Positions 41,691-50,237 of a stretch of DNA of 64,000 bases are shown here, in pieces. The position numbers and the translations under genes were made by a program. Position 1 is the stretch's first letter, and each line of letters begins with the position of its first letter. A model generated the notes under the pieces. That model did not search any database. It saw nothing but the letters and a program-made list of their open reading frames with translations, and had not been told where the DNA came from. The stretch is from an uncultured Hyphomicrobiales bacterium (lineage in GTDB: Bacteria; Pseudomonadota; Alphaproteobacteria; Rhizobiales; Beijerinckiaceae), in contig CAIOVE010000065.1 in assembly GCA_903861645.1 (NCBI GenBank), positions 138 to 64,137 on the forward strand, in the 5' to 3' direction.

Positions 41691-43382
41691 TCAATGCTGG
41701 TCGAACACCGTCTGATAGGCGGCGACCGCCGCCTTGATCGCATCGAGCTCCGCCGAGGTCGGCCGGTCGGGATCGCGCGCCGCCGGCAGGCTGCCGAACT
41801 TCAGCAGACACGCCATGAGCAGGAAGCGCGCCTTGGTCGCGGTGAGATCGGTCGCCGCGATCTGGAACTCGTGCGGATCGGCGAAACCCTCGGTCGCGTT
41901 GCGCCCCACCTTGGCGACGGGAATGCCGCTGAAGCAGGCTTTGAGCAACAGTTTGTGGCGAGCCGTCGATGGCGTCGAGCCATAGGGCACGAGGCCCTCG
42001 TTGACGAACCCTGTCAACATGCCGAGCTTCAGCTTGTGCTCGATCGACGCGATGAGATCGTGCTCGAGCGCGGGATCGTCGCCGAATTCCAGCGTCGAAT
42101 AACTGCCATCCTTGACGATGGAAACGAAGGGAATGGCGCCCGGCAGCAACTTGCCGGCGGCGTCCTTCACCGTCACCGGCACATGCTCGATGCCGTTCGC
42201 GCCTTGCTTGACCGCCTTGACCACCGAGGGAAGCTGAGTAATGCGCACGTCCGACTTATACGTGTGCTTGAAGACCGGCAGATAGGTCAGCGCCAGCCGT
42301 CCGGTGTGGCTGACGTTGCCGATGATGCCGCCATGGCCGCCGGTGGCGCGGTAGCCGCCGGGTCGCGCGTCGACCTTGGCGACCTCGCGCGACGCGAATA
42401 TCTGCTGTTCCTGAATGACCACGACGCCGCATTTGTCGCGACCCTGTTCGTCGGCCCAGATGCGGGAATCTATATAGGCCGCGCTGTCGACGATGTTCTT
42501 GGGGCCGTCGTTGCTGATCTGGCCCTGCGGACGCTGCGCCGCGTTGCCGCAGATCGGCCGTGTCGTGTCGATGAGCAGGTTGAACCAGTAGGCGGTTTCC
42601 TCGACCTGCGGACTGCCCTGCGTCCAGATGACGCCGTCGTAATCGCCGCTCGTCGTCAGCGCCTGCATGTCGTTGGTGACCTTGGCGAGCATGGGCCGCG
42701 GCGGCGCGTTCGCCATGTGATAGGGCTTGTAGCCGAAGTAATTGTGGCCGCGCAGTTCGGGCGGAATGTCGCCCTCGCCCTTGTCCTTGCGCAGCCTGGC
42801 GGGCAGGCCCTTGGTGAAGCCGCCGGGAGGCGCGCCGCGATAAAAGTCCACGTCGGCGATGGCGGAAATCTGGTTGGCGACGCCCTCGACGCCGATGGCG
42901 AAACGATCGATTTCCTCGAAGCTGCGCGAGCCGTCGGGAAAGAATCCCTGCCGCGCCTTGGCGCTGCCGGGAGCCGCGCATTCTTCTTCCCATGGCGCGC
43001 CGTCCGCCTGCATGGCCATGTAGGGCAGGGGATAGAGCCCGTCCTCTGGACGCAACTCGATTTCGTAAACGGGCTTGTCCGCCTCGCTCGTCTTCTCCTT
43101 CTTGAAGACGCCGTCGGGGCCGATGTAGCCATCCGGCGGGCCATAGAGTTCGGCGGCGTCCGACTCAAGCGGATGCGCGGAGAATTGCTCGACATAGACC
43201 TTCGCCGGCGCGGCGAGCCGCTGCAGGCGCAGCGCGTCATAGGCCATCGGCGATCCGTCGGGATTAAGCCGGGGCGGCAGGCCATGTTTCGCGCGCGCCT
43301 TGTTGGAGGTCACCAGCGGCGGCGTGTTCTGGATCGTCGCGGTCGGACCAGCGAGATGGGCGATCCGTGTTTTCCTTGCCAT
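41691..43382 (-). CDS. Divergent asparaginase/glutaminase-fold amidohydrolase
   Basis: PTATIQ, TQGSPQVEETAYWF, AAQRP...NDGPKNI, SREVAK align to type I/II asparaginase motifs. Confidence 0.75.
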   Translation of the reverse strand: MARKTRIAHLAGPTATIQNTPPLVTSNKARAKHGLPPRLNPDGSPMAYDALRLQRLAAPAKVYVEQFSAHPLESDAAELYGPPDGYIGPDGVFKKEKTSEADKPVYEIELRPEDGLYPLPYMAMQADGAPWEEECAAPGSAKARQGFFPDGSRSFEEIDRFAIGVEGVANQISAIADVDFYRGAPPGGFTKGLPARLRKDKGEGDIPPELRGHNYFGYKPYHMANAPPRPMLAKVTNDMQALTTSGDYDGVIWTQGSPQVEETAYWFNLLIDTTRPICGNAAQRPQGQISNDGPKNIVDSAAYIDSRIWADEQGRDKCGVVVIQEQQIFASREVAKVDARPGGYRATGGHGGIIGNVSHTGRLALTYLPVFKHTYKSDVRITQLPSVVKAVKQGANGIEHVPVTVKDAAGKLLPGAIPFVSIVKDGSYSTLEFGDDPALEHDLIASIEHKLKLGMLTGFVNEGLVPYGSTPSTARHKLLLKACFSGIPVAKVGRNATEGFADPHEFQIAATDLTATKARFLLMACLLKFGSLPAARDPDRPTSAELDAIKAAVAAYQTVFDQH

Positions 43383-43416: not shown

Positions 43417-44376
43417 TCAGGCGGCGGTCGCCCGCGTGGGATGAACCATGGACTTTTCGATCATCGCATGCACGCCCTTCGAACCATTGACGGTTTGCGT
43501 GACGCGCAGATCGGCGGCGAGGCTGCACAGCATGTAGGCGTCCTCCGGCGAGAGATTGGCCTTCTCGCCCAGCAAGGCGATCATGTCGCGCAGGGCCGCG
43601 ACCGCGCACTGATCGAGATCGGGGTCCATGCCCATGGTGATGTAATGCGTCGGCGTCTCCGCGCGCGGATACGTGAAGTTCAGATCGTCGCGCACGACGA
43701 AGGTGAATTTGCCGCGCAGCGCCGTCTCGATGGCGGTGCCGTCGACCTCGCCGTCGCCCTGACAGCCATGCCCGTCGCCGCAGGAGAACAGCGCGCCCTC
43801 GACGAAAACGGGCAGATACAGCGTCGCGCCGGCCATCAACTCCTTGTTGTCGAGGTTGCCGCCATGGGCGCGCGGAATGATCGAGGTGATCTTGCCCCAG
43901 CCTTTCGGTGGCGCGACGCCCATGACGCCGAAGAAGGGTTTCAACGGCAATTCGAGACCCCAGGGCATCACGCCGACCATGCGCTTCTCGTCGAGCGGAA
44001 TGACGGTCGCGCGCGGTTCATCGACCGCGTGGGGCAGCGTGCCGCCAAGCGGGCGAATGGAGTTCACGCCCCAGTCCTGAAGCAACGACACCTCGTCGAT
44101 GCGAACCTCCAGCACCATGCCGGGTTTCGCGCCCGCGATATGCACGGGGCCGGTGAGAATATGCGGGCCTGGACCTTGCTGCGCGTGTTTGTGAATGAGC
44201 GTGAGCGCCTCGGGAATGTGAAACTTGTCCGCCGGCGGCAGAAAGGCTGGATTGCCCGACATGGTGTCAATGGTGACGCTGTCGCCACTTTGAACATGCA
44301 GCACCGGCTTGGCGACGGGATCAAAAAATCCCCACTGGCAGGTCGCCGGACCCGCGCTCACCTCGTAATGCGCCAT
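43417..44376 (-). CDS. Acetamidase/formamidase family protein
   Basis: HILTGPV, PFFGVMG, HGGNLDN, GDGHGCQGDGEV; RBS AGGAGG. Confidence 0.92.
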   Translation of the reverse strand: MAHYEVSAGPATCQWGFFDPVAKPVLHVQSGDSVTIDTMSGNPAFLPPADKFHIPEALTLIHKHAQQGPGPHILTGPVHIAGAKPGMVLEVRIDEVSLLQDWGVNSIRPLGGTLPHAVDEPRATVIPLDEKRMVGVMPWGLELPLKPFFGVMGVAPPKGWGKITSIIPRAHGGNLDNKELMAGATLYLPVFVEGALFSCGDGHGCQGDGEVDGTAIETALRGKFTFVVRDDLNFTYPRAETPTHYITMGMDPDLDQCAVAALRDMIALLGEKANLSPEDAYMLCSLAADLRVTQTVNGSKGVHAMIEKSMVHPTRATAA

Positions 44377-44453
44377 GCCATTCCTCCTGAACGCGAACCC
44401 ATGGAACGTCGGATTTTTTGACGCGCGCGTCGCGACATCGCGCGTCGTCCATC

Positions 44454-44469
44454 TGGCGCCAGCCTTGCA
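44454..44469 (+). promoter_or_regulatory. sigma54 promoter candidate for the ABC transporter operon
   Basis: TGGCGCC-AGCC-TTGCA, exact GG-N10-GC. Confidence 0.65.
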
Positions 44470-44481
44470 ATAACTTTGCCA
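44466..44481 (-). promoter_or_regulatory. sigma54 promoter candidate for the amidase/asparaginase-like arm
   Basis: Minus strand TGGCAAA-GTTA-TTGCA, exact GG-N10-GC. Confidence 0.6.
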
Positions 44482-44534
44482 TAGCTGTTCCCGCGTGGCC
44501 ATCGCATCAGGCGATCGCGCGCATGGAGGATGCC

Positions 44535-46124
44535 ATGCTTCGACTTCCCGCATTCAGATCATTTCGTCTCGCGCTCGCCGCGCTGACGGTCGCGTCGGCG
44601 CCGCTGGCGGCGCGCGCCGAAACAACCCTTCGCGTCGCGATGACCGCCGCGGACATTCCCGACTGGCGCGGTCAGCCCGATCAGGGATTCGAGGGCAACC
44701 GCTTTGTTGGCTTCACGCTCTATGATTCCCTCATCCTCTGGGATCTGTCGAGCAGCGACAAGGAAGTCGGCCTCAAGCCGGGGCTGGCGACGAAGTGGGC
44801 CATCGACCCCAACGACAACAAGCGCTGGATTTTCGATCTGCGCGAAGGCGTGAAATTCCACGACGGATGCGACTGGAACGCCGACAACGCCGTGTGGAAT
44901 TTCGAGCGACTTATCTCCGATAAAAATCCGGCCTTCACGCCATATAACTTCGGACGCGCGCGGTCTCGGACAAATAACATCGATCACATGGAGAAAATAA
45001 GCGACTACCAGATCGCCTTCCACACCAAGGTTCCGGAGTCACTGTTCTTTTTCAACATGCCATATCTGTTCATGCTGTCGAAATGCGCCGTCGAGAAGGC
45101 CGGCAACAATCTCGACGAGTTCGCCAAGCATCCCGCCGGCTCGGGCCCCTACAAATTCGCCAGCGTCGTGCCGCACGAACGGCTCGAATTGGTGAAAAAC
45201 ACCGATTACTGGGACAAGGATCGCGTCCCCAAGCATGATCGCCTTGTCCTGTTGCCAATGCCCGAGGCGACCACGCGCGTCGCGGCGCTGCTTTCCGGGC
45301 AGGTTGACTTCGTCGAGGCGCCGCCGCCCGACGCGGTGCCCGCGCTCAAGGCCGCCAATATGCGGATCGTGACCAATTCCTATCCGCATATATGGCCCTA
45401 TCTTCTGAATGTCGCGCGTGGCCCCTTCAAGGACGTGAAGGTGCGGCAGGCGGCGAACTGGGCGATGAACCGGCCGGAAATGGTCGACTTGCTCTCCGGC
45501 CTCGCGGCGCCGAGCGGTGGCGTCTTCGTCACGCAGCAGAAATATTATGGCCACCCGATGGAGTACGGCTACGACCCGAAGAAGGCGACCGCCCTGCTGA
45601 AGGAAGCCGGCTGCTATCCGTGTGAAATCAACATCGGCATTTCCACTTCCGGCTCCGGCCAGATGCAGCCGCTGCCGATGAACGAACTCGTCAAGGAGCA
45701 ACTGGAAGCGGTCGGCTTCAAGGTGAAGTTTGATACGCTGGACTGGAATTCGCTGCTCGATGTTTTCTTCAAGGGACAGGAAAAGTTCCCCTATGACGGC
45801 ATCAATTTCAGCAGCGGCGCCTCCGATGCGCTCAACTTCGTCAAGAGCCAGATGAGCAAATACAACGCGCCGCTGGGCGGCAACTGGGGTTGGTATTTCA
45901 ATCCCGAGGTCGATGCGCTCGGCGAGAAGGTGCTGGCGAGCTTCGATCCGGCCGAATGGGAGCCGATGGTCGTCAAGATGCACGAGATCATCGTTCGCGA
46001 TGCCCGCAATCTGTTCATCGTGACCGATCTGAACCCACGCGCCCTGTCGCCGCGCGTCAAGGGCTTCGTGCAGGCGCAGAGCTGGATTCAGGACATGACC
46101 CCGATTTCCATCGATCCGAAATAG
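44535..46124 (+). CDS. ABC transporter solute-binding protein, peptide/nickel family 5
   Basis: Signal peptide, LREGVKFHDG, GSGPYK, VRQAANWA; RBS GGAGG. Confidence 0.93.
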   Translation: MLRLPAFRSFRLALAALTVASAPLAARAETTLRVAMTAADIPDWRGQPDQGFEGNRFVGFTLYDSLILWDLSSSDKEVGLKPGLATKWAIDPNDNKRWIFDLREGVKFHDGCDWNADNAVWNFERLISDKNPAFTPYNFGRARSRTNNIDHMEKISDYQIAFHTKVPESLFFFNMPYLFMLSKCAVEKAGNNLDEFAKHPAGSGPYKFASVVPHERLELVKNTDYWDKDRVPKHDRLVLLPMPEATTRVAALLSGQVDFVEAPPPDAVPALKAANMRIVTNSYPHIWPYLLNVARGPFKDVKVRQAANWAMNRPEMVDLLSGLAAPSGGVFVTQQKYYGHPMEYGYDPKKATALLKEAGCYPCEINIGISTSGSGQMQPLPMNELVKEQLEAVGFKVKFDTLDWNSLLDVFFKGQEKFPYDGINFSSGASDALNFVKSQMSKYNAPLGGNWGWYFNPEVDALGEKVLASFDPAEWEPMVVKMHEIIVRDARNLFIVTDLNPRALSPRVKGFVQAQSWIQDMTPISIDPK

Positions 46125-46229
46125 GCTTGCCTTTCCGGGGCGCGATATATCGCGCTCCGGCCTTCCTTGGCGCCGGTATTGCATTTTCGTTTCGGCGGGC
46201 TCGTTTCGCGCCCGCGCATGGAGAGGCCC

Positions 46230-47186
46230 ATGTGGCGATACGCCGCGCGACGCATTCTCATGACGATCCCCATCGCGCTCGGGGTCAGCGCGATCTGCTA
46301 CGCGCTCATCCTGCTCGCGCCCGGCGACCCCATCCAGTCGATGCTGCCGCCCGACGCGACACCAGAGGAAGTCGCCTATCTCAAGAAGGCCTATGGCTTC
46401 GACAAGCCCGTGCCGGTGCAATATTTCCTTTGGCTGATGCGCGCGCTGTCGGGCGATCTCGGCGCCTCGATCCAGACCCATCGTCCCGTCGCGCTCGAGG
46501 TGATGACGGCGTTGTCGAACACCTTTATCATCGCGGTCGGCGCGGTGCTGCTCGCGTTCACCCTTGCTTTCGTCATGGGCACCATCGCCGCCTATCACGT
46601 GGGCAAGCCGACGGATCGCGCGCTGACGGGCGTCGCGGTCATGGGCGTCAGCATTCCGAACTATTGGCTGGGCATTGTCTTCATCATCATCTTCGCGGTG
46701 AAGCTCGGCGTGCTGCCCGCCACGGGCATGGGCTCGCAAGGTTCGGCGAACTTCAACATCTTCGACTGGGCGCAATTGAAATACGCGGTCCTGCCGATCC
46801 TCACCATGGCGATGACGCCGCTCGGCATCATCATGCGCAGCACGCGCGCGGCTGTCGCCGACGTGCTCAACCAGGATTTCATCCAGATGCTGCGCGCCAA
46901 GGGGTTGCGACCCTTCGCCGTGTTGCGGCACGCGGTGCGCAACGCCCTGCCGCAGGTGTTGACGGTCATGGGCCTGCAACTTGGCTATCTCGTGGGCGGA
47001 TCGATCCTCATCGAAACCATCTTCGCCTGGCCGGGCACCGGCTTTCTGATGAGCAAGGCCATCCTCACGCGCGACGTGCCGCTGCTGCAAGGGGCTATCC
47101 TCGTGCTCGCCATGGCCTTCGTCACCATCAATCTGGCCGTAGATCTTTTGCAGGCGGCGATCGACCCGCGCATCAAGCGCGCCTAG
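46230..47186 (+). CDS. ABC permease, DppB-like
   Basis: APGDP, YGFDKP, FIQMLRAKGL...HAVRNAL, ETIFAWPG. Confidence 0.93.
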   Translation: MWRYAARRILMTIPIALGVSAICYALILLAPGDPIQSMLPPDATPEEVAYLKKAYGFDKPVPVQYFLWLMRALSGDLGASIQTHRPVALEVMTALSNTFIIAVGAVLLAFTLAFVMGTIAAYHVGKPTDRALTGVAVMGVSIPNYWLGIVFIIIFAVKLGVLPATGMGSQGSANFNIFDWAQLKYAVLPILTMAMTPLGIIMRSTRAAVADVLNQDFIQMLRAKGLRPFAVLRHAVRNALPQVLTVMGLQLGYLVGGSILIETIFAWPGTGFLMSKAILTRDVPLLQGAILVLAMAFVTINLAVDLLQAAIDPRIKRA

Positions 47187-47199
47187 GCGGAACGACAAC

Positions 47200-48099
47200 A
47201 TGAGCGACGTGAATGCCGCCACGCTAGCCGATTTCGCCGCGAGCGAGGCGTCGCCGCCGGTGCGCGGCTACTGGGCAAGCGTCGGGCATCGGCTGCGATA
47301 TGATTACGCGACGCTGTTCTTTCTCTCGGTGATCATCGTCGTGGCCCTTCTGGCCATCTGCGCGCCATGGCTCGCGCCTTTCGATCCCACCAAGACGGCG
47401 ATGGCCTATCGGCTGAAACCCGTCGGCTTCAAGAACTTCATGCTTGGCACGGACGATCTTGGTCGCGACATGCTGTCCCGTCTTTTGTGGGGCGGGCGCA
47501 CCTCCCTGATCATGGGCATGGTTCCCGTGGGCGTCGCCACGGTGATCGGCGGCTTTCTGGGGGTTCTCGCCGGATTCGTCGGCGGCAGGGTCAACACGCT
47601 GATCATGCGCGCGATGGACATATTCTACGCGTTTCCCTCCGTGCTGCTGGCGGTCGCGATTTCCGGCACGCTTGGCGGCGGCATCAAGAACGGCATGCTC
47701 GCGCTGACGATCGTGTTCATTCCGCCGCTCTGCCGCGTCGCTGAATCCGCCACCACGCTCGTGCGCGGACTGGACTTCGTCGAGGCGGCGCGCGCCAGCG
47801 GCGCGACGACCCTGTCGATCATCTTGCACCACGTCCTCGGCAACGTGCTCAGCCCCATCCTCATCTTCGCGTCGAGCCTGATCTCGGTGTCGATTTTGCT
47901 CGGTTCCGGTCTGTCCTTCCTCGGCCTTGGCGTCGAGCCGCCGACGCCCGACTGGGGCCTGATGCTGTCGGCCCTGCGATCGGGAATTTATATTCAGCCA
48001 CTCGTCTGCGCCCTGCCGGGCGTCGCGATTTTCATCACATCGCTTTCGTTCAATCTCGTCAGCGACGGGTTGCGACAGGCGATGGATGTCAAGGCCTAG
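47200..48099 (+). CDS. ABC permease, DppC-like
   Basis: LGTDDLGRD, FVEAARASGA, LSFLGLG...PDWG. Confidence 0.93.
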   Translation: MSDVNAATLADFAASEASPPVRGYWASVGHRLRYDYATLFFLSVIIVVALLAICAPWLAPFDPTKTAMAYRLKPVGFKNFMLGTDDLGRDMLSRLLWGGRTSLIMGMVPVGVATVIGGFLGVLAGFVGGRVNTLIMRAMDIFYAFPSVLLAVAISGTLGGGIKNGMLALTIVFIPPLCRVAESATTLVRGLDFVEAARASGATTLSIILHHVLGNVLSPILIFASSLISVSILLGSGLSFLGLGVEPPTPDWGLMLSALRSGIYIQPLVCALPGVAIFITSLSFNLVSDGLRQAMDVKA

Positions 48100-48108
48100 G
48101 GAGCGCGC

Positions 48109-49191
48109 ATGCGCCTGATCACCGAACGACCGGATACCAGACCGACGCCCGCGGCGAGCCGCGACCGCGGCGGGCCGCAGCAACCTATCCTGATCGTCAA
48201 TGGCCTGCGCAAGTATTTCCCGATCAAGGGCGGCCTGCTGCAACGCAAGGTCGCCGAGGTGAAGGCGGTCGACGGCGTCGACTTTTCGGTGATGAAGGGG
48301 GAGACGCTCGGCATTGTCGGCGAATCCGGTTGCGGCAAGTCCACCCTCGCCCGCCTGTTGATGCATCTGATCCCGAAGGACGAGGGCGAGTTGATCTTCG
48401 ACGGCGATCCCGTCGACGACATCCGCGGCCTGTCGCTACGCGACCTTCGGCGCGATCTGCAAATGGTCTTTCAGGACAGTTATTCGTCGCTCAATCCACG
48501 GTTGCCGATTCAGGACTCCATCGCCTATGGCCCGCGCGTGCATGGCGTCGGCAAGGCCGAGGCGGCCGCGCTCGCCGCCGACCTGCTCAACAAGGTGGGG
48601 TTGCGGCCCTCCATGTTCGGTGCGCGCTATCCGCATGAACTGTCGGGCGGCCAGCGCCAGCGCGTCAACATCGCGCGCGCGCTGGCGCTCGATCCGCGCA
48701 TGCTGATCCTCGACGAGGCCGTGTCGGCGCTGGACAAGTCCGTCGAGGCGCAGGTGCTCAATCTGCTGTCGCGGCTCAAGCGCGAACTCAATCTGACGTA
48801 TCTGTTCATTTCGCACGATCTCAGCGTGGTTCAGTACGTGTCGGATCGCGTGCTGGTGATGTATCTCGGTCAGGTCGTTGAAATCGGTCCCGTCGACGCG
48901 ATCTATGCCGCGCCGCGGCATCCCTACACCCGCGCCCTGCTGGATTCCCGCCTTTCGATGAATCCGCTGGAGCGCATGAGTGAGCCGCCGCTGTCGGGCG
49001 ATCCGCCCAATCCAGTCAATCCGCCGAGCGGTTGTCGCTTCCGCACGCGCTGCGCCTTCGCGGAATCCGTGTGCGCCGAGCGGCAGCCCCGTCTCGCCGC
49101 CGCCGATGGCGGCGCGCATCTGGTCGCCTGCCACATGGCCGACGCCGAATCCGGCCATGGCCGCGCGGGCCTTTCCGCGCCGCTGCATTGA
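48109..49191 (+). CDS. ABC ATP-binding protein, DppF-like
   Basis: GESGCGKST, ELSGGQRQR, LDEAVSALD, C-terminal CRFRTRC. Confidence 0.93.
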   Translation: MRLITERPDTRPTPAASRDRGGPQQPILIVNGLRKYFPIKGGLLQRKVAEVKAVDGVDFSVMKGETLGIVGESGCGKSTLARLLMHLIPKDEGELIFDGDPVDDIRGLSLRDLRRDLQMVFQDSYSSLNPRLPIQDSIAYGPRVHGVGKAEAAALAADLLNKVGLRPSMFGARYPHELSGGQRQRVNIARALALDPRMLILDEAVSALDKSVEAQVLNLLSRLKRELNLTYLFISHDLSVVQYVSDRVLVMYLGQVVEIGPVDAIYAAPRHPYTRALLDSRLSMNPLERMSEPPLSGDPPNPVNPPSGCRFRTRCAFAESVCAERQPRLAAADGGAHLVACHMADAESGHGRAGLSAPLH

Positions 49192-50237
49192 TGGAGACGG
49201 ACATGCCGCTCGACGCGCTCGCCGACGCCACGCCCGCGGGCGTACAGATCGCAAGGCCTCTCGTCGAGGTGCGCGACCTCAACGTGCGCTTTGTCAGTCG
49301 CGACTCCCGCACCAACGCGGTCAATGGCGTTTCCTTCAGCCTGCAAGCGGGCGAGGTCCTCTGCATCATCGGCGAGTCAGGCTCGGGCAAGTCCGTGACC
49401 ATGCGCGCGCTGATGAAAATGCTGCCAGAAGGCAAGACCCGTATCGAGGGTTATCTGCGCGTCGGCGAACATCTCATCGCCGACATGACGGACCGGCAGA
49501 TGCGCGCCATTCGCGGCGCCGAGGTGTCGATGATCTTTCAGGAGCCGATGACGGCGCTCGACCCGGTCTGCACCATCGGCCAGCAGATCGCCGAAACCAT
49601 CATGCGGCACGAGGGCTGTTCGCGAAAGGTCGCCGACGCGCGCGCGCTCGAATTGTTGCAAGTGGTGCGCATTCCCTCGCCCGAGCGACGGCTGAAGGCC
49701 TATCCGCATGAATTGTCGGGCGGCCTGCGCCAACGCTCCATGATCGCCATCGCGCTGTCGTGCCGGCCGCGCCTGCTGTTGGCGGACGAGCCCACCACCG
49801 CGCTCGACGCCACCGTGCAGGCGCAGGTGCTGGTTCTCATGCGCAAGCTGCAACGGGAACTGGGCATGGCGATGATTTTCGTCACCCATGACCTCGGCGT
49901 CGCCGCGCAGATCGCCGACAAGGTGGCGGTCATGTACGCTGGTCGCATGGTTGAATACGGCCCCGTCGCCGAGGTGCTCAATTCGCCGCGTCATCCCTAC
50001 ACGCGCGCCATGCTCGCCTCCAACGTGCATGGCCACGCGCGTGGCGAGGATCTCGACACGATCCCCGGTTCGCCGCCGGACATGCGGCGGCCCATTCGCG
50101 GTTGCGCCTTCGCGCCGCGCTGCAAGGTCGCCCGGACATCTTGCGCGATCGAACCGCCGCCCGTCGTCCATCTCGGGCCCGACCGCTACTTCGCCTGCAT
50201 CGCCAACGACGCTTCCGCCGAAGCCGCAGCCACCTGA
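49191..50237 (+). CDS. ABC ATP-binding protein, DppD-like
   Basis: GESGSGKS, ELSGGLRQR, DEPTTALD; ATG overlaps the previous TGA. Confidence 0.93.
   Translation: METDMPLDALADATPAGVQIARPLVEVRDLNVRFVSRDSRTNAVNGVSFSLQAGEVLCIIGESGSGKSVTMRALMKMLPEGKTRIEGYLRVGEHLIADMTDRQMRAIRGAEVSMIFQEPMTALDPVCTIGQQIAETIMRHEGCSRKVADARALELLQVVRIPSPERRLKAYPHELSGGLRQRSMIAIALSCRPRLLLADEPTTALDATVQAQVLVLMRKLQRELGMAMIFVTHDLGVAAQIADKVAVMYAGRMVEYGPVAEVLNSPRHPYTRAMLASNVHGHARGEDLDTIPGSPPDMRRPIRGCAFAPRCKVARTSCAIEPPPVVHLGPDRYFACIANDASAEAAAT

Follow-up and report, generated by a model that had tools for sequence, protein, structure and literature searches.

A 28-bp element at positions 44454-44481 of the 64,000-nucleotide stretch of DNA analysed here (the window) carries two sigma-54-type promoter motifs that lie on opposite strands and are built around one palindromic −12 hexamer (TGGCGCCAGCCTTGCAATAACTTTGCCA, read directly from the sequence). 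The plus-strand motif, directed at an ABC uptake operon, is, to judge from its conservation at the orthologous position, a genuine sigma-54 promoter. The minus-strand motif, directed at an amidase gene, is plausible but unproven as a promoter. Whether the element as a whole would work as a compact bidirectional sigma-54 promoter is a matter on which the motifs and their genomic context leave the scales evenly balanced.

The element occupies a 158-nt gap between two divergent genes, an amidase read on the minus strand from an ATG at 44376 and a solute-binding protein gene read on the plus strand from an ATG at 44535; AGGAGG precedes the former start codon and GGAGGA the latter, and the solute-binding gene has an in-frame alternative ATG at 44523. 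Leftward, the amidase gene probably forms one operon with an asparaginase-like gene, and in relatives too this neighbour comes after the amidase. Rightward, the binding-protein gene is followed by genes for two permeases, two ATPases, an isochorismatase-like hydrolase, and a TauD-type dioxygenase. Pfam searches found no regulator gene of any type in the cluster, in agreement with the initial annotation, which had stated that no enhancer-binding protein is encoded there. The six listed strain differences inside the amidase gene all fall at third codon positions (6/6), and the amidase is therefore under purifying selection and in use. As a separate observation, a small reading frame (start MQDDGDAIAELKERLA... 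or MTIAPMTKTELAAQLA...) lies between the binding-protein and permease genes in four relatives (L018-L021) and is absent from the present genome. The features of the region are collected in Table 1.

Table 1. Features of the amidase/ABC transporter region, in window coordinates; motif scores are those of the genome's own sigma-54 weight matrix.
Feature	Position	Strand	Evidence and remarks
Asparaginase-like gene	41691..43382	-	Pfam Asparaginase N-terminal domain; 26 nt downstream of amidase
Amidase, acetamidase/formamidase family, 319 aa, first gene of leftward operon	43417..44376	-	Pfam FmdA_AmdA 9.4e-29
Fast-evolving GC-rich part of the spacer, would-be amidase 5' leader	44389..44447	.	13-16 substitutions and 11-12 deleted nt in two variant strains
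91-nt invariant block	44448..44538	.	Holds both motifs and the full 5' leader and start codon of the binding-protein gene
Sigma-54 (-24/-12) promoter of the ABC uptake operon, TGGCGCCAGCCTTGCA	44454..44469	+	Orthologous conservation; 13.3 bits
Palindromic TTGCAA	44465-44470	both	-12 element of both orientations
Mirror sigma-54-like motif pointing at the amidase, TGGCAAAGTTATTGCA	44466..44481	-	14.2 bits; predicted start ~44455
Family-5 solute-binding protein, signal peptide, first gene of rightward operon	44535..46124	+	Pfam SBP_bac_5 9.9e-78
Candidate sigma-54 promoter, TGGCGCCGGTATTGCA	46168..46183	+	14.8 bits; in the 105-nt gap from binding-protein stop 46124 to permease ATG 46230
Two permease and two ATPase genes, peptide/opine-type ABC transporter	46230..50237	+	Pfam BPD_transp_1, OppC_N, ABC_tran, oligo_HPY

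Rereading of the sequence found the two motifs, their GG-N10-GC spacing, the common hexamer and the length of the gap to be exactly as first annotated. The plus strand reads TGGCGCC-AGCC-TTGCA from 44454 to 44469 and the minus strand TGGCAAA-GTTA-TTGCA from 44481 to 44466. If +1 is placed 12 nt past the C of the GC dinucleotide, a placement made from motif geometry alone, rightward transcription would start near 44480 and leftward transcription near 44455, 79 nt before the amidase ATG; the predicted starts lie 25 bp from one another and are divergently oriented. Along the DNA, the order is leftward start, rightward −24, common −12, leftward −24, and rightward start. The initial description of the promoters as face-to-face does not survive this geometry, in which the predicted starts diverge and the RNAs would not overlap; as read from the motifs, the arrangement is an interleaved bidirectional one with interdigitated cores. 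The accompanying proposal that both sites cannot be occupied at once does follow, because the two recognition sites have 12 bp in common and only one orientation should be loadable at a time. The spacer is identical in contigs from five independent metagenome runs and is therefore not an assembly artefact; the region was encountered in DNA metagenomes and in no RNA run, the depth of the genome reaching 17-33x in lake samples (runs X1, X2, and X4).

The rightward motif matches 10 of the 11 core positions of TGGCAC-N5-TTGCW, the exception being at −22, where G replaces A; this substitution is frequent in the genome, which has 10 other intergenic sites of the TGGCGC type. Genomes of the same genus that keep the divergent amidase/binding-protein pair have TGGCAY-N5-TTGCW 50-70 nt before the binding-protein start, and such a motif precedes the solute-binding gene at 19 of the 20 genome loci for which upstream sequence exists. 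It is kept down to 41-47% protein identity and into Betaproteobacteria, and many metagenome contigs carry it as well, giving 30 distinct orthologous sequences overall; when the spacers are aligned, MAFFT places CATCTGGCGCCAGCCTTGCA of the present genome against CATCTGGCACTTCCCTTGCA of the relatives. Because the motif is conserved at the orthologous position, its reading as a sigma-54 promoter, already made in the initial annotation, stands, and the rightward promoter may be regarded as ordinary and well supported.

The host genome supplies a setting in which such promoters would be used. It comprises 4.18 Mb in 108 contigs assembled from lake-water metagenomes, and the nearest matches of the binding protein, to Terripilifer ovatus (83%) and next to Methylocella, place the host in Beijerinckiaceae. 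The genome has one rpoN (one Sigma54_DBD gene) and three enhancer-binding-protein genes, which encode NtrC (694.6 bits against an NCBIfam cut-off of 558.6, with an intact GAFTGA in GHERGAFTGA), NtrX (738.6 bits against a cut-off of 600, without GAFTGA), and one response regulator with GAFTGA. From the presence of rpoN and of an NtrC above its cut-off with GAFTGA, we infer, as had been suggested at the outset, that NtrC is the likely activator.

The whole genome was scanned for GG-N10-GC with at least six of seven further core positions, against a rough gene set in which ~78% of the genome is coding. Sites matching 7/7 core positions comprised 9 that are intergenic and no more than 300 nt from a same-strand gene start, 0 other intergenic sites, and 1 within coding sequence, and the corresponding numbers for 6/7 sites were 34, 13, and 18. 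Overall, 43 sites of this quality are intergenic and gene-oriented, 13 are otherwise intergenic, and 19 are coding, despite the ~78% of the genome that is coding, and the enrichment of sigma-54-like sites in the intergenic, gene-oriented class is strong; after subtraction of the coding background, ~90% of sites of such quality are intergenic and gene-oriented. The three sites of the window (44454 plus, 44481 minus, and 46168 plus) all match 6/7 positions and belong to this class. The genes behind the sites include those for a 344-aa glutamine synthetase, an ammonium transporter, a urea-type binding protein, a creatininase, and Bmp and NMT1 binding proteins. By the genes behind them, the ~40-45 candidate sigma-54 sites look like a large NtrC regulon, into which the amidase/ABC cluster would fit, and one that looks unusually large for a 4.2-Mb genome.

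Two further observations concern this set of sites. The ~40-45 candidate promoters stand against only two activators with an intact GAFTGA, namely NtrC and the one response regulator, and nearly all of the target genes encode transporters or hydrolases for nitrogen compounds. Four other opposite-strand pairs of sigma-54 motifs also occur in the genome, all of them back-to-back and in divergent spacers (C79:18311(-)/18321(+), C51:4189(-)/4212(+), C59:11806(-)/11848(+), and C79:11169(-)/11306(+)); their −24 elements are 10, 23, 42, and 137 nt apart, and the tightest of these pairs leave no room between the promoters for activator sites. That divergent pairs are frequent in the genome speaks in favour of a functional leftward half of the element.

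Binding sites for the presumed activator proved elusive. The weak NtrC-like box that had been pointed out at 44301-44315 matches 8/12 consensus positions; 46% of 3,000 control upstream regions score at least as high, and the box is best discarded. The sigma-54 promoters of the present genome show no enrichment of the E. coli-type NtrC box, and nothing survived multiple testing in a de novo activator-site search upstream of 40 sigma-54 sites (4-mer and 3-mer dyads, 5- to 7-mer enrichment). A recognisable NtrC site was found in neither direction from the element.

The leftward motif likewise matches 10 of the 11 core positions of TGGCAC-N5-TTGCW, with A for C/T at −21, and it is intergenic and 90 nt from the amidase ATG, other sites ranging from 14 to 147 nt. 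A weight matrix was built from 40 other sigma-54 sites of the present genome, and under this matrix the three sites of the window fall at ranks 11-15 of 40 (Table 1), the leftward site at rank 14. An earlier matrix built from the orthologous sites had given the leftward motif only 11.9 bits; it was set aside, and the genome's own matrix considered fairer, because the selection of those sites had forced C/T at −21 and the earlier matrix contained family-specific spacer bases. The form TGGCAR-N5-TTGCW occurs only twice in the genome, in both cases intergenic and gene-oriented. Within the window, TGGC-N7-TTGCW was observed 3 times against 0.84 expected, a number reached in 6/100 shuffles, and this count taken alone is a weak test. 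For an estimate of chance that takes the rightward promoter as given, the 12 bases after a real TTGCA-ended promoter were filled from the genome's intergenic DNA in 2,000,000 trials; a mirror site of such quality appeared in 0.13% of them, a figure that is optimistic because the finding was picked for its coincidence, after the fact. A scan of both strands of 44250-44650 revealed no sigma-70-like promoter, and a terminator scan of the same interval found none.

Comparison with relatives separates the two motifs. It had been proposed that conservation of both be sought in orthologous spacers; the plus-strand motif was borne out at the 19 loci described above, and the minus-strand motif is absent from all orthologous spacers. 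The mirror site was found in 0 of ~45 such spacers; the eight orthologous plus-strand sites (of 30) that also end in TTGCAA are likewise without a mirror −24. The leftward motif is confined to the present lineage and is invariant only in two strains that are ~88-90% identical. Closer relatives with a short spacer were sought in genomes and metagenomes, where the best protein identity, besides strain variants, was 76-83%.

The two strains, represented by variant contigs from metagenome runs X4 and X7, divide the spacer into a constant and a variable part. In the 91-nt block that holds both motifs, the X4 variant is unchanged (0 differences) and the X7 variant differs at one position (44506 A>G); the flanks of the block differ by ~10-15%. 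It is the sole conserved non-coding block upstream of the amidase. It also takes in 53 nt of the binding-protein leader, and because that leader lies in the block too, conservation of the block is not specific to the leftward motif. The remainder of the spacer (44389-44447) is variable between the strains, and for this reason an alternative amidase promoter there is unlikely. This variable part, the would-be amidase leader, contains a GC-rich hairpin at 44420-44446 (GACGCGCG-N11-CGCGCGTC, with an 8-bp stem). The hairpin was ruled out as a terminator, having a T-run on neither strand and being unconserved and partly deleted in the variants, and it is probably without function.

The spacers of relatives are quite different in build. 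They are 270-390 nt long and include an AT-rich region with conserved boxes (L003-L009, L058, L059, and L017). The box beside the amidase reads TGTATACA(AT) / TGTATACAAT, in which TGTATACA is palindromic and, as we take it, resembles GntR/HutC-type operators. A second box, TGCTGTCAAGCA, presents TTGACA on the amidase strand and, 17 nt later, (A/T/C)TAGCC, and this TTGACA-N17-TAGCC arrangement may be read as a sigma-70-type amidase promoter; further boxes are GTGCAYCGCAATAA and a second copy of TTGTAT. The present genome is without this ~250-nt control region, only the sigma-54 core being alignable by MAFFT, and because the region is missing here, the amidase has lost its ancestral promoter and operator. 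One possible remnant, TTGCAATAAC-TTTGCC as a descendant of the relatives' GCAATAA-N5-TTTGCC box, was rejected as unproven, because only a 7-mer is in common, the order with respect to the promoter is wrong, and the spacing is 14 nt, not 10 nt. In a metagenome orthologue (L115), positions 362-403 (numbered in the orientation of the window) contain two back-to-back motifs, the leftward TGGCACTTCCGTTGCG and the rightward TGGCACTGCCCTTGCA, which are separated by 10 nt and lie ~360 nt from the amidase. On these motifs, at least one further lineage may also transcribe its amidase operon with sigma-54, through another geometry.

The mirror design was also sought more widely. The strict pattern TGGC-N7-TTGCAA-N7-GCCA occurs in 14/400 other genomes of the order, the reversed control giving 1; 11-12 of the 14 matches are inside long reading frames and 0 are in a divergent spacer. 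The intergenic mirrors without a divergent gene pair lie between co-directional genes (L139) and between convergent genes (L138). Mirror sites can thus come about without having a function, and among the 400 genomes of the order the design does not recur. One of these loci has a structure of its own: at 1501-1546 of L139 (genome G410), the tandem rightward motifs TGGCACGGCGATTGCA and TGGCATTTGTATTGCG, 30 nt apart, are accompanied by the mirror TGGCAAAAGGATTGCA and lie downstream of several TGCA-rich repeats, between the co-directional genes.

These comparisons suggest a route by which a bidirectional promoter could have been assembled. The rightward half would be ancestral and, when nitrogen is limiting, would drive the binding-protein/ABC operon with NtrC as its activator. 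The leftward half would be a lineage-specific gain that followed the loss of ~250 nt including the amidase's sigma-70-type promoter: with a new TGGCA on the 3' side of TTGCAA, the holoenzyme could bind in the reversed orientation and transcribe the amidase/asparaginase-like operon from ~44455. That the element is a working bidirectional promoter which arose de novo in this way, in one Beijerinckiaceae lineage after deletion of the amidase's sigma-70 promoter/operator, has a probability that we would put slightly on the lower side of an even balance. A closed complex with sigma-54 is stable but gives no transcription before it has been remodelled by an ATPase activator. With 12 bp in common, the two closed complexes would load in one orientation at a time, and activated NtrC would fire whichever of them is present. 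A single signal would then turn on the genes of both uptake and hydrolysis, in a ratio set by the relative affinities of the two orientations. At high activation, the two directions would be expected to compete, as they do in sigma-70 bidirectional promoters (PMC12825309). The toggle function that was earlier entertained is pure speculation; nothing seen needs a toggle, and co-activation with competition is simpler.

A serious contender, possible though on the doubtful side, is that the element consists of one real promoter and a chance mirror. The leftward TGGCA would then have arisen by chance among the bases with which the binding-protein mRNA begins, and the amidase would be transcribed from a weak, unrecognised promoter, or poorly. 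Such an account would explain why the leftward motif is in no orthologue and is consistent with the mirrors that exist without a gene to drive (L139 and L138); the invariant block is at least partly explained by the rightward promoter and its leader, and the coincidence was selected post hoc. It must contend, however, with a simulated probability of just 0.13% and with a leftward site that scores as well as the validated rightward site. It also leaves the amidase with no visible alternative promoter, the only room for one being unconserved and marked by 10-12 nt indels even as the amidase itself is under purifying selection.

Far less probable are two readings in which the leftward half acts on the rightward promoter or is no promoter at all. 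The holoenzyme might bind leftward without a productive start, in which case the site would be a built-in competitor of the rightward promoter and would damp or sharpen its activity. This is improbable: the overlap of the binding modes, evident from the sequence and from what it implies for loading, would permit it, and strong activation in one direction can repress the partner in sigma-70 bidirectional promoters (PMC12825309), yet nothing in the sequence distinguishes binding from firing, remodelling by an activator should extend to both closed complexes alike, and the amidase would be left without a promoter. Less credible still, to a degree that makes it very improbable, is that the quasi-palindrome TGGC-N7-TTGCAA-N7-GCCA formed by the 28 bp is the operator of a dimeric transcription factor, with no second promoter. 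Its ends and centre are indeed symmetric, but its 7-nt spacers are not (GCCAGCC versus AAAGTTA), its left half is orthologous to the asymmetric sigma-54 promoters of all relatives, the cluster has no regulator gene, and the pattern elsewhere in the order lies mostly within genes.

The third site of the window, before the first permease gene, directly follows a near-perfect palindrome or hairpin (GCGCGATATATCGCGC at 46140-46155, within 46137-46158). The two closest relatives keep the promoter motif, as TGGCACCTCCTTTGCA after a hairpin of its own in L016 and as TGGCGCCGATGTTGCA in L017. This conserved motif suggests that the membrane components of the transporter are expressed separately, from a sigma-54 promoter at 46168.

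Should the element work as a bidirectional promoter, several consequences would follow. Orientation preference, and not separate regulators, would determine the ratio of two divergent operons, both of which would obey an identical on/off signal. For work on polymerase competition the element would offer a clean minimal system, and for synthetic nitrogen-responsive circuits a very compact part. It would also represent a case of promoter capture: after deletion of its own promoter, a gene would have come under the sigma factor of its neighbour through only a few changed bases. Even with an inert leftward site, the rightward promoter and the internal promoter at 46168 would remain as conserved members of what looks like a large NtrC regulon in a lake bacterium known only from uncultured material.

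The element may be compared with three groups of known systems. Back-to-back divergent pairs of sigma-54 promoters with common activator sites are exemplified by zraP-zraSR of E. coli and nifHDK-nifJ of Klebsiella, and the four back-to-back pairs of the present genome may be set beside them. Like these, the element has two sigma-54 promoters that would serve divergent operons of one regulon under one activator, as predicted here. In the back-to-back pairs, however, each promoter has a core of its own, at a distance of 10 to several hundred nt from the other and with the −24 sides turned towards one another; simultaneous occupancy is possible, and the activator sites usually lie between the cores. 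In the present element, the cores are interdigitated and have a common −12, there is no room between them, and the leftward −24 lies downstream of the rightward −12. In the limited literature searched, sigma-54 promoters with a common −12 element are not described, and the divergent sigma-54 regions found there have separate cores only. The rightward promoter by itself resembles, in the class of its motif, the NtrC/sigma-54 promoters of nitrogen-scavenging genes in Alphaproteobacteria (glnII, amtB, and urea-transporter genes), and it shares that class with the sites upstream of the glutamine synthetase, ammonium-transporter and urea-type binding-protein genes of the present genome; it differs from the known promoters in that a recognisable NtrC site was not found here.

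The closest analogy in design is with the sigma-70 bidirectional promoters with overlapping symmetric −10 elements described by Warman, Grainger and colleagues (bioRxiv 10.1101/2020.01.31.928960; NAR 2026, PMC12825309). In E. coli, the starts of these promoters are divergent and 7-25 bp apart, and the promoters often drive two divergent mRNAs (bioRxiv 10.1101/2020.01.31.928960; PMC12825309). Sigma-54 is mentioned in neither report. Symmetry-built sigma-70 bidirectional promoters are now known to be common, and the rules of their control are only beginning to emerge. The element shares with them a short pseudo-symmetric core read on both strands, a single polymerase orientation at a time, and close divergent starts, with a predicted distance of 25 bp against the 7-25 bp of E. 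coli. By this analogy, it would work like the Warman/Grainger class without being a member of it, its leftward activity being a prediction only. Two differences set it apart. The common element is here the sigma-54 −12 hexamer TTGCAA, whereas in the sigma-70 promoters it is the −10 element, and sigma-54 needs an ATP-driven activator, so that both directions would stay silent until a common signal releases them.
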